Below, piece after piece: positions 4,150 to 7,192 of a stretch of DNA of 64,000 nucleotides; the first letter of the stretch is position 1, and every line of letters begins with the position of its first letter. Source of the DNA: Alphaproteobacteria bacterium (lineage in GTDB: Bacteria; Pseudomonadota; Alphaproteobacteria; Rs-D84). The stretch is taken from the NCBI GenBank assembly GCA_017629245.1, contig JAGBXO010000007.1, positions 14,100-78,099 on the forward strand, given 5' to 3'. A program made the position numbers and the translations under genes. The notes under the pieces are model-generated. The model did not search any database. It was not told where the DNA came from and worked only from the letters and a program-made list of their open reading frames with translations.

Positions 4150-6768
4150 ATGACAAAAAAACACACTCTTTCCCCCGAACAAGATTGCGCGGCCAACCCG
4201 TGCGAGAATGTGTGGGTCCAGGCAAATGCGGGCACTGGTAAAACCAGCGTCCTGGTCCAGCGTTTGCTGCGTATTTTGTTTCGTAGTCCCGATTGTGCGA
4301 CCACGGGGATATTGTGTCTGACGTACACCAACGCTGGGGCGGGCGAAATGCGTAATCGTATATTGGTTGCGTTGCGTAAATGGGCTTTGGCATCAGATGA
4401 AGAATTGGCAGAAATGTTGGATGGTGTTGCGCTGTCGCGCCCAATAACAGATGCCGACATTGTGCATGCGCGTGAAATATTCTTTCGTTATATTGATGCG
4501 CCTGAAATGTTAAAAATAAAAACACTTCATGGTTTTTGTGAAGAGATATTACACCGTTTTCCGATAGAAGCGGGCGTATCGTCGTCTTGGTCGCTGGTGT
4601 CCGACAGTGCTCAACGCATACTGTTGCAAGATACATTTGATAAATTGATAAATTCGCCGACATCAGACGGTCGTGTCTATGATGCGTTTGCGCATATTGT
4701 GGGGCGTGTTTCCGAAACATATATGACGGATCTGTTGGCAATATTAAGTACGCAATACAAACATTTTTTTCAGATTGACAACATTGTTAAATATCGCGAA
4801 TACTTTATTGATACAACTAAAAAGTTTTTAAACATAAATTCGGGAAAAAATACTGTGTCCGACCCAGTTTTGTTGCAAAAAATCATAGATTTAGCATCTT
4901 ATGAACAAAAAACATCAAAAAAGCCGGCGAAGTACTTAACAGAAATTATTAATCTAACAAAACAGTATATTGATAAAACGATAGATTTTGAAGAATATAA
5001 ATCTGCATACTTAACGACCGAAGGCAACAAAAAATCCGTCGTTTCAAAAAAAGAATATTTGTCCGCCGAACAACAGCGTGTATACGACCAAAATATTTAC
5101 AATACTAATGCTTTAGTGTTTGCGGACACGATGGCGCTGTTTGATTTGTCAGCATCCTTTGCGACGCGATACAAGGATGAAAAACGTGCGCGCAATCTGC
5201 TGGATTTTGAAGATTTGATACTTTATACCCGTAAATTGTTTTCTAATCGCGAAACAATGGGGTGGGTGTTATCTCAACTGGATGTGTCGTTGTCGCATAT
5301 TTTGGTAGATGAAGCCCAGGATACATCACCGTTGCAATGGGATATATTGCGAATGCTGTCTGGTGACTTTTTTACCGAAGGTGATACGGGCGACATGCCG
5401 CATTCGCTGTTTGTTGTTGGTGATACTAAACAGTCAATTTACGGCTTTCAGGGCGCAGACCCCGCAGCGTTTGCGTACAGTCGTGAAGTTATATCTAAAC
5501 AAATTGAAAACAATGTGCGTACCATTCGTGAAGTGCCCCTGGCACAGAGTTTTCGCTCTGCATTACCGGTGTTAAATACAGTTGATCGTTTTTTTGCAGA
5601 CGATGCTGTGATTGCGATATCTGATTTTGCAAACAATCCGCACAAATGCTTTCGTATTGATGCGCCTGGTGCTGTTGAATTGCATGCGTTGGTTGCAAAA
5701 CAAGATGCAGATATAACAATTGAACAGTATACGGCCGCAATTGCCGACAGAATAAAGGCTTTAATTGATTCTGGTAAATATACGGCCAGCGATATCATGG
5801 TGCTGGTACAGCAACGCAACCCGATGGCAGCGCCCCTGATTTATCAGTTGAAAAAACGCGGCATAGATGTTGCAGGCAGTGATCGTATTGTTTTGCCAAA
5901 TTATCCGGCCGTTCGCGACATGTTAAATCTGGTTCGTTGGTGCTTAAATCCGACGGATGATTTTAGTTTATGCTGTGTGTTAAAAAGTCCGATTTTCTAT
6001 TTGACTGAACATGATATTTTTAATTTGTGTAAAATAAAAAATGACATAAACAGTGCACGCAAACGCGAAGACAAAGATGCGGTTCCAATAACTGTTTTTG
6101 AAATCTTGGAAAACGAGCGTCCAGACATTTATAAACAACTAACAGATATCAAGAATTTGTCCGAAACGGCATCTGCCTATACATTCTTTTCGTATGTGTT
6201 GAACACGAATGATATGCGGCATAAATTTATTTCGGCCCTGGGCGACCAGGTAATTGATCCGCTGGAAGAATTTATGACAATATGTCTGTCGTACGAACGA
6301 ACCCAGCCTGGCACTCTGTGTCATTTCTTAAAATGGTTTATATCCGGTGCCAGTGAGATAAAGCGCGACATGGACGCGTCTGCCGGCGTTCGTATTGTGA
6401 CCGTACACGGCAGCAAGGGGCTGGAATCGCGTGTTGTGTTCTTGATTGACACCGTGCGTACACCAAAGTCGGAAAATATATTGCCGATTGAATCGCGTGA
6501 CGATATGCCTGTGTGGTTGTGGACACCGCGTGGGGCCCAGGTTGGCGAATCTGCCGATGCGCGCGACAACTTAATGCATGTGCGTATGGCAGAATACTAT
6601 CGTTTGTTGTATGTTGCAATGACGCGTGCACGTGACGAATTGTACATATATGGCTATACGCCGCACAAGAATGCCCCAGAAAACGCATGGCACACCCAAT
6701 TATGGCGTGTTTTTGCGGGAGAGGACACCTCAGAATTTATCAGGATAACAAATGAAGACATTGCATGA
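4150..6768 (+). CDS. addA: AddA-type helicase-nuclease, UvrD-like helicase portion (872 aa; downstream nuclease domain is in a different frame)
   Basis: Walker A (QANAGTGKTSVLVQR) and UvrD/AddA helicase motifs (VDEAQDTSPLQW, VGDTKQSIYGFQGAD, TVHGSKGLE, YVAMTRARDEL). Confidence 0.8.
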   Translation: MTKKHTLSPEQDCAANPCENVWVQANAGTGKTSVLVQRLLRILFRSPDCATTGILCLTYTNAGAGEMRNRILVALRKWALASDEELAEMLDGVALSRPITDADIVHAREIFFRYIDAPEMLKIKTLHGFCEEILHRFPIEAGVSSSWSLVSDSAQRILLQDTFDKLINSPTSDGRVYDAFAHIVGRVSETYMTDLLAILSTQYKHFFQIDNIVKYREYFIDTTKKFLNINSGKNTVSDPVLLQKIIDLASYEQKTSKKPAKYLTEIINLTKQYIDKTIDFEEYKSAYLTTEGNKKSVVSKKEYLSAEQQRVYDQNIYNTNALVFADTMALFDLSASFATRYKDEKRARNLLDFEDLILYTRKLFSNRETMGWVLSQLDVSLSHILVDEAQDTSPLQWDILRMLSGDFFTEGDTGDMPHSLFVVGDTKQSIYGFQGADPAAFAYSREVISKQIENNVRTIREVPLAQSFRSALPVLNTVDRFFADDAVIAISDFANNPHKCFRIDAPGAVELHALVAKQDADITIEQYTAAIADRIKALIDSGKYTASDIMVLVQQRNPMAAPLIYQLKKRGIDVAGSDRIVLPNYPAVRDMLNLVRWCLNPTDDFSLCCVLKSPIFYLTEHDIFNLCKIKNDINSARKREDKDAVPITVFEILENERPDIYKQLTDIKNLSETASAYTFFSYVLNTNDMRHKFISALGDQVIDPLEEFMTICLSYERTQPGTLCHFLKWFISGASEIKRDMDASAGVRIVTVHGSKGLESRVVFLIDTVRTPKSENILPIESRDDMPVWLWTPRGAQVGESADARDNLMHVRMAEYYRLLYVAMTRARDELYIYGYTPHKNAPENAWHTQLWRVFAGEDTSEFIRITNEDIA

Positions 6769-7192
6769 TATTTTAAAACTGTGCGAACAAACGCATTTTG
6801 CAACCGATGCCGGCACCCAAATGCATAAAAGATTGCAGCGGGTCATGATTGAAGCCGACAAAACATCAGGCGACCCAGATTTGGTTGCACGCATTTCTGC
6901 AAAATCCGAATTGTTGCCTTTCTTTTGCGTCGCTGCCAAAACCGAGGTGCCAATTGCCGGCACGATAAAAGGGCGGTTTGTTAGCCGCCGCATTGACCGA
7001 TTGCTTGTAAATACATTGGACAAGACGATATCTGTTCTGGATTATAAAACAGATATAAACAAAACAATTAATCGCGACAAATACATTGCACAGGTTCACG
7101 AATATGTCGCCTTATTGCAGGCAGTTTATCCAGATTACAAAATCGCAGGCTATATTTTATGGACCAATGATTTTTCGCTGGAAAAAATATAA
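6752..7192 (+). CDS. addA: AddA C-terminal RecB-family PD-(D/E)xK nuclease domain (separate ORF, +1 frame relative to helicase part)
   Basis: The nuclease motif GRIDRL...VLDYKTD is present. The ATG is preceded by AGGA. It overlaps the end of the helicase ORF by 17 nt. Confidence 0.7.
   Translation: MKTLHDILKLCEQTHFATDAGTQMHKRLQRVMIEADKTSGDPDLVARISAKSELLPFFCVAAKTEVPIAGTIKGRFVSRRIDRLLVNTLDKTISVLDYKTDINKTINRDKYIAQVHEYVALLQAVYPDYKIAGYILWTNDFSLEKI

Follow-up and report, generated by a model that had tools for sequence, protein, structure and literature searches.

Does an addA gene whose helicase and nuclease parts lie in different reading frames encode an enzyme made of two polypeptides, is it a decaying remnant, or is the split an error of sequencing? 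A locus in the window, a 64-kb stretch of contig JAGBXO010000007.1 from an alphaproteobacterium of the order Rs-D84, raises this question. In a preliminary description made from the DNA, addA was divided between an open reading frame (ORF) with the helicase motifs and a second, overlapping ORF with the nuclease motifs, and these three explanations were put forward. The product of addA acts in the repair of DNA breaks, and enzymes of the RecBCD and AddAB types carry their nuclease domain on a linker. We find that the split is very probably a conserved functional fission of addA, which is old and fixed across at least 80 gut alphaproteobacterial species whose genomes are reduced. The helicase and nuclease polypeptides probably assemble non-covalently into an AddA-like helicase-nuclease.

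The helicase and nuclease halves

The ORF listing of the window confirmed the two frames as first described (Table 1), with the nuclease ORF in the +1 frame relative to the helicase ORF (6752-4150 = 2602) and an overlap of 17 nucleotides (nt) between them. The product of the first ORF matches the Pfam families UvrD-helicase (PF00580, E 1.6e-48) and UvrD_C (PF13361, E 4.5e-22). It contains the motifs GTGKT, DEAQD, GDTKQSIYGFQGA and VAMTRAR, with the ATPase and translocation motifs intact, in agreement with the helicase assignment made earlier. The NCBIfam model of alphaproteobacterial AddA, TIGR02784 (addA_alphas), aligns with it over profile positions 2-896 at 662.5 bits, and the comparison of families gives 662 bits for addA_alphas, 166 for PcrA and 104 for UvrD. 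Relative to canonical AddA the architecture is essentially full, with trims of 8-17 residues, and the best 120 of its homologue clusters are all 858-891 amino acids (aa) in length. The protein ends in ...FIRITNEDIA, shortly after its final conserved segment (residue 862 of 872 corresponds to addA_alphas position 896).

The product of the second ORF carries the nuclease motifs GTQMH, SRRIDRL, VLDYKTD and Q..EY. Of the two motifs named earlier VLDYKTD is present as given, while the reported GRIDRL reads RRIDRL. TIGR02784 aligns with this product over profile positions 1005-1135 at 55.9 bits. A search of a 5.8-billion-protein collection returned 420 clusters of homologues, the best 120 of which are short (110-163 aa), with identities down to 45%. 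The predicted catalytic residues are H25, D82, D97, K99, Q114 and Y118. An alignment of stand-alone homologues of the nuclease ORF (A1) shows no variation at H25, D82, Y98-K99, Q114 and Y118 down to 45% identity, and D97 varies in a single sequence, where it is E.

By sequence, a profile of the nuclease finds no meaningful match among chains of the PDB, and a fold search was needed to place it. An AlphaFold2 model built on A1 has a mean predicted local distance difference test (pLDDT) score of 93.1 and a predicted template modelling (pTM) score of 0.82. The best fold matches of this model in the PDB are the AddA chains of Bacillus subtilis AddAB, 4cei_A, 4ceh_A and 3u44_A, with E values of 5e-5 to 5e-4 and template modelling (TM) scores of about 0.66 on the query (4cei_A: E 5e-5, TM 0.66). 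Behind the AddA chains come Cas4-family nucleases and RecB (8b1t_B). The predicted structure thus most resembles the nuclease-bearing chain of AddAB (PDB 3U44, 4CEH, 4CEI).

Both domains of AddA are therefore present, on separate polypeptides. No single polypeptide scores above the cutoff of TIGR02784 (860.75 bits, against 662.5 and 55.9 for the two ORFs), and the same two-ORF state is found in all 80 related genomes described below. In public databases the helicase is named "UvrD-helicase domain-containing protein" and the nuclease "hypothetical protein". Since these names are generic and the scores fall below the cutoff, automated reconstructions will score these reduced genomes as lacking AddA, and the enzyme is systematically missed in the annotation of the Enterousia clade.

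Conservation of the split and selection on both genes

We scanned one genome per bacterial species with the profile built from A1 and fetched the best 80 loci. They come from "Candidatus Enterousia" and from gut alphaproteobacterial metagenome-assembled genomes whose hosts include humans, ruminants and birds among other animals. The uncultured order Rs-D84, in which Enterousia is placed, consists of organisms with reduced genomes, mostly below 1 Mb (0.75-1.0 Mb; PMC12306168); the text of that study makes no mention of repair or recombination. A script recovered a helicase ORF of ~860-890 aa followed directly, in another frame, by a nuclease ORF of ~146-158 aa in 79 of the 80 fetched loci as well as in the window, and the remaining locus (L013) proved on inspection by eye to be split too, with an ATGA overlap. 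The split is accordingly present in all 80 species-level genomes, among which nuclease identities go down to ~46%. Neighbour-joining of the helicase sequences places the split forms in one monophyletic group, to which a fused protein of 1007 aa (P0163) is sister.

Selection was assessed by the ratio of nonsynonymous to synonymous substitution rates (dN/dS; Nei-Gojobori, 13 pairs with unsaturated dS). The nuclease has a median of 0.15 and the helicase one of 0.065, and the comparison of the window with its nearest species (L006) gives 0.22 and 0.057, respectively. None of the loci contains a further stop or frameshift in either ORF. Both genes are under purifying selection.

These results bear on the suggestion that a recent frameshift has made addA a pseudogene, that is, that the gene is being lost as the genome shrinks, with the 146-aa ORF as a remnant. 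The small size of the Enterousia genomes (PMC12306168), the lack of a nearby addB and the scores of both pieces under the TIGR02784 cutoff would all suit such decay. However, the split is shared by a monophyletic clade of at least 80 species whose nucleases have diverged to ~46% identity, both dN/dS values are far below 1, and the catalytic residues, the nuclease ATG and its Shine-Dalgarno-like sequence (below) are conserved in loci that have gained no stops or frameshifts. Recent pseudogenisation is highly improbable on this evidence. Genome reduction, to which the preliminary description had linked the split, holds as its context but not as a mechanism of decay.

The split might also be an indel of sequencing or assembly, the true gene being one continuous ORF. 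The window comes from a metagenome assembly, and a one-base change within 6749-6768 could join the frames; as had been pointed out, any frame switch is confined to that interval, because a TAA at 6746-6748 shuts the frame of the nuclease ORF just 5' of its ATG. Yet the same two proteins occur on ~10 contigs, including assemblies of three separate sequencing runs (SRR12529113, SRR12529140 and SRR12529146) and one ENA assembly; their DNA matches that of the window at 100% identity over 8-14 kb. Long homopolymers are absent from the junction. The same architecture recurs in the 79 other species, assembled by many groups, with different junctions that include a different frame offset. We regard an indel as having next to no probability.

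The lost linker and the remodelled junction

When 1.84 billion representative proteins were searched exhaustively with the profile, about 40 clusters had E <1e-30, and nearly all of them are stand-alone proteins of ~147 aa. The nearest full-length fused relative is P0163, and partial fused forms are P0141, P0142, P0168 and P0169; beyond these come P0177 (1059 aa) and then ordinary AddAs of 1070-1200 aa. P0163 shares 44% identity with the two proteins of the window end to end. P0163, P0141, P0168 and P0169 differ from the split pair in having a single ORF with a low-complexity linker, and no Met, Shine-Dalgarno sequence or stop at the place of the junction.

P0142 and P0141 lie on contigs of 1-2 kb, too short for gene context. 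P0142 is a fused AddA C-terminal fragment on a 1.1-kb contig (L088); its first ~90 residues (HKSKGLEFPVVILADTNKQFN...) seem to be of another, Firmicutes-like AddA/PcrA lineage than the remainder, and the assembly may be chimeric. Among the representative proteins, short nuclease-like entries of other alphaproteobacteria (P0179, P0182, P0203 and others) were considered as independent fissions and rejected, as they are without the His motif or start in mid-domain; they look like truncated gene calls.

In the alignment of the junction, the helicase tail ...FIRITN corresponds to ...GVIEIS / GVLTIS of the fused proteins and the nuclease head MKTLHDILKLCEQTHFATDAGTQMH to ...LSEFLAARESRKHATDVGTEIH. 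The low-complexity linker of the fused proteins runs between these two points, so the cut falls inside a variable linker. The distance between the last strand of the helicase and the catalytic His is ~54 residues in P0163 and >100 in P0141, as compared with ~29 in the window, across two chains. Likewise, the ~108 positions of TIGR02784 between its two matches are represented in the window by ~27 residues, which means that more than a one-base shift separates this locus from a canonical addA. A helical insert of ~19 residues after the His motif is also deleted relative to canonical AddA. It had been anticipated that alignment with intact orthologues would locate a missing or extra base, and that a single-base correction might restore a plain addA of ~1018 aa. 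The alignment located the cut and revealed a deleted interdomain linker, which the single-base scenario overlooks.

Compared with alphaproteobacterial AddA as modelled by TIGR02784, the split pair has the same superfamily 1A (SF1A) helicase motifs, the same His, Asp, D-x-K and QxxxY motifs of the nuclease and the same order of parts, with ~31% identity to canonical AddAs over ~980 aligned residues. It differs in that two overlapping genes stand in place of one protein of ~1100-1200 aa, the linker and the helical insert of the nuclease are deleted, and addB does not lie upstream as it does in the canonical loci.

The sequence around the start of the nuclease gene suggests how the second polypeptide would be made. 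In the window the junction reads ...atcAGGAtaacaaATGaagacattgcaTGA, with the AGGA placed 6 nt before the ATG, as had been reported. The nuclease ATG is conserved in 80/80 genomes, and the fused relatives have no Met where it sits. AGGA is found within positions -14 to -5 of this ATG in 75 of the 80 genomes. The Arg codon inside the AGGA is AGG in 74 of 78 genomes, against a background of 2.5% AGG among the 3669 Arg codons elsewhere in the same helicase genes. This near-fixation of a rare codon reflects nucleotide-level selection for a ribosome-binding site within the coding sequence.

The overlap itself has changed repeatedly. In the +1 frame it measures 17 nt in 48 loci, 11 in 14, 8 in seven, 20 in four, and 14 and 41 in one each. 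Five loci, and L013 as well, have an ATGA overlap of 4 nt in the other frame, the +2 offset being that of one clade. These classes are clade-specific in the helicase tree, with 17 nt in the crown clade. Although length and frame vary by clade, a stop/start overlap is kept at every junction. As in coupled gene pairs, the putative Shine-Dalgarno sequence lies inside the upstream gene at proper spacing and the start overlaps the upstream stop, and separate initiation coupled to upstream termination would fit all of the junctions. Translationally coupled overlapping pairs of the ATGA or stop-start type, with a Shine-Dalgarno sequence inside the upstream gene and a start overlapping or just before its stop, are the closest parallel; the pair described here would differ from them in being born by fission of one protein, with an overlap remodelled several times. 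The simplest history would be that the linker of an AddA which was compact beforehand was cut once, and that the overlap was remodelled afterwards.

We also weighed programmed +1 ribosomal frameshifting in the overlap, which would yield a fused AddA as a main or minor product with stimulation by the Shine-Dalgarno sequence as in prfB. The SD-like AGGA 5' of the overlap and the +1 offset of the second ORF in most genomes agree with it. By contrast, the offset is +2 with a 4-nt ATGA in one clade and the overlap ranges from 4 to 20 nt (41 in one locus), no slippery motif is conserved, and the helicase stop is 20 nt past the Shine-Dalgarno sequence instead of at a shift site, with varying codons before and at it (GCA TGA, GCA TAA, AAA TGA). 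In the window the TAA shuts the nuclease frame 3 nt before the ATG, and an invariant nuclease ATG is needed for initiation alone. With offsets of both +1 and +2 and no shift site, the junctions lack the marks of programmed frameshifting, which we consider quite improbable. Of the explanations first put forward, the two-polypeptide AddA with coupled translation is thus the only one to hold up and is strongly supported by the comparison of genomes, given the conservation of the split, the Shine-Dalgarno sequence and the ATG in relatives and the purifying selection on both halves.

We propose that an ancestral fused AddA lost the flexible linker between helicase and nuclease, and that the gene was cut there into a helicase gene of ~871 aa and a RecB-type nuclease gene of ~147 aa. 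Both genes would be co-transcribed, probably with recN, and translated as separate polypeptides, and the Shine-Dalgarno sequence in the last helicase codons together with the ATG overlapping the helicase stop would couple nuclease synthesis to helicase synthesis. The resulting non-covalent AddA-like complex would resect broken DNA ends, with a protein-protein interface replacing the tether.

The AddA nuclease domain of B. subtilis AddAB is connected with the motor through an extended linker that packs against the AddB linker, and the domain is positioned beyond AddB, where the 3'-strand channel ends (PMC3321194). The split pair has no such covalent linker. A fused Enterousia AddA deprived of its linker would probably be unable to reach the 3'-channel position, a constraint that two chains would lift. 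E. coli RecB of RecBCD, a structural homologue of the nuclease (8b1t_B), follows the same two-module logic, and the tether, its most variable part, is replaced by a gene boundary in the split pair. In E. coli RecB, Chi-regulated recombination depends critically on how long and how stiff this tether is, and shortening it abolishes the Chi-dependent activities but not general nuclease activity (PMC6326792).

Full-text searches of the literature turned up no description of an addA or recB that is split. A paper on addA of Helicobacter pylori, examined as a possible precedent, concerns a variable repeat in the addA linker and describes no split. The split addA is a variant of a known enzyme not previously reported, of moderate interest for the study of recombination enzymes and for the annotation of reduced genomes. 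With both halves under selection in a whole clade that has no covalent tether, it offers a natural experiment on whether linkage is needed or docking is enough. It is also a clean case of gene fission followed by the rise of an internal Shine-Dalgarno sequence within a coding sequence, which shows itself in a rare AGG codon that is close to fixation.

addB and the surroundings of the split gene

In the two canonical alphaproteobacterial loci that we examined (L090 and L091), addB (915 and 978 aa, PF12705) lies directly 5' of addA and overlaps or abuts its start, and tsaE precedes addB (tsaE-addB-addA). The split gene has no such neighbour, as had been observed: a coiled-coil gene lies upstream and recN downstream. 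The large ORFs of the window encode DnaK, DnaE, SecA, ArgS, phosphoglycerate mutase, two giant surface-type proteins and three proteins without a family, and apart from the split addA none of them matches a nuclease family, the 641-aa upstream neighbour included. In the 80 loci, ORFs of >=400 aa are syntenic neighbours or unrelated (AlaRS, an MmeI-type enzyme, an ABC ATPase). Searches by tblastn with the two canonical AddBs gave no match in the window or the split loci, and those with TsaE, the nucleotidyltransferase and the thioredoxin that neighbour canonical addB gave none either.

Several points weigh against reading the split pair as a conserved AddA-like enzyme. Family scans of the large ORFs found no addB in the 64-kb window, and none lies within 6 kb of the split gene in 80/80 loci. 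The flanks of the fused P0163 and P0177 contain no addB in the stretches available upstream, 0.9 kb (L086) and 1.8 kb (L087), and the L087 sequence ends just after addA. The classical AddAB mode of action is unproven for this clade, as addB is absent from the inspected stretches, which amount to ~7% of a genome; addB may be elsewhere or lost. In addition, the rate of evolution of the nuclease is about double that of the helicase. All of the genomes compared are metagenome-assembled, and the assemblies that are 100% identical to the window are repeated sequencing of one strain, not independent lineages.

Such observations could be taken to mean that the helicase has been repurposed as an AddB-independent, UvrD/PcrA-like enzyme and that the small nuclease is loosely associated or independent, with no end resection of the AddAB type. 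Consistent with this, addB adjoins no split locus and is missing from the short flanks of two fused relatives, while it overlaps the addA start in both canonical loci, and the helicase is far more constrained than the nuclease. On the other hand, adjacency and stop/start overlap in 80/80 genomes argue for stoichiometric co-function, the helicase retains a near-full canonical AddA architecture with a score for addA_alphas well apart from those for PcrA and UvrD, and the inspection for addB covered only a small part of a genome. We therefore think this alternative unlikely and prefer a non-covalent AddA-like complex. It is similarly doubtful, though conceivable, that the Enterousia clade has dispensed with AddB and that the motor and the nuclease of AddA act as free proteins, co-expressed with RecN. 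If so, protein-protein contact would recruit or release the nuclease, with no covalent linker for it to swing on, and the pair would represent a natural separation-of-function RecB/AddA nuclease module, an undescribed architecture for bacterial double-strand-break resection.

The features of the locus are collected in Table 1. recN starts 22 nt 3' of the nuclease gene on the same strand. We found no terminator-like site on the + strand between 7192 and 7215, and recN stands behind the split addA in 77 related loci; the helicase, nuclease and recN genes are thus likely to form one unit, of which recN is probably the third gene and the hairpin behind it likely the 3' end.

Table 1. Features of the split addA locus, in positions of the window
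Feature	Position	Strand	Description
addA helicase-subunit gene	4150..6768	+	872 aa, ATG start; complete SF1A UvrD-like motor
addA nuclease-subunit gene	6752..7192	+	146 aa, ATG start; stand-alone RecB-family PD-(D/E)xK domain
Shine-Dalgarno-like AGGA of the nuclease gene	6742..6745	+	inside the helicase codons Ile-Arg-Ile (ATC AGG ATA)
Stop/start overlap, 17 nt	6752..6768	+	nuclease ATG to helicase TGA; putative translational-coupling junction
recN	7215..8867	+	TIGR00634, 449 bits, above cutoff
Bidirectional terminator-like hairpin GCCCCGTAACGGGGC with T-runs	8872..8886		between convergent recN and xseA

The gene 5' of the split addA is divergent (2133-4058, - strand) and is kept in this place in 73 of the 80 related loci. 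It encodes a membrane-anchored protein of 641 aa with an N-terminal transmembrane helix and a long coiled coil, which belongs to no curated family and has weak coiled-coil-type Pfam matches alone.

The skew of G over C (GC skew, profile over 1-64000) has positive values at 4-8 kb and is strongly negative between ~10 and 52 kb. This change, at ~8000-10000, coincides with convergent recN and xseA and the hairpin between them, and could be plain gene-strand bias or a switch like that at a replication terminus.

Elsewhere in the window, two giant ORFs on the - strand take up ~14 kb together in a genome thought to be smaller than 1 Mb. One (17272-24474) encodes 2400 aa from a TTG start, with weak F5/8 type C and galactose-binding matches, and the other (38733-45632) encodes 2299 aa with a Listeria-Bacteroides repeat domain; both are probably surface or adhesion proteins. 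Two further - strand products have no match in Pfam or NCBIfam. The first (27968-30508) is a Cys-rich protein of 846 aa with a signal-peptide-like start and homologues in seven related loci, and the second (59403-61787) is a protein of 794 aa with one transmembrane helix and long acidic stretches rich in Pro, Val and Glu. In one related locus (L014) a complete MmeI-type restriction-modification enzyme of 907 aa, with all five MmeI domains, is encoded just 3' of recN (8187-10910, - strand), at a site where most relatives have xseA and its neighbours instead.

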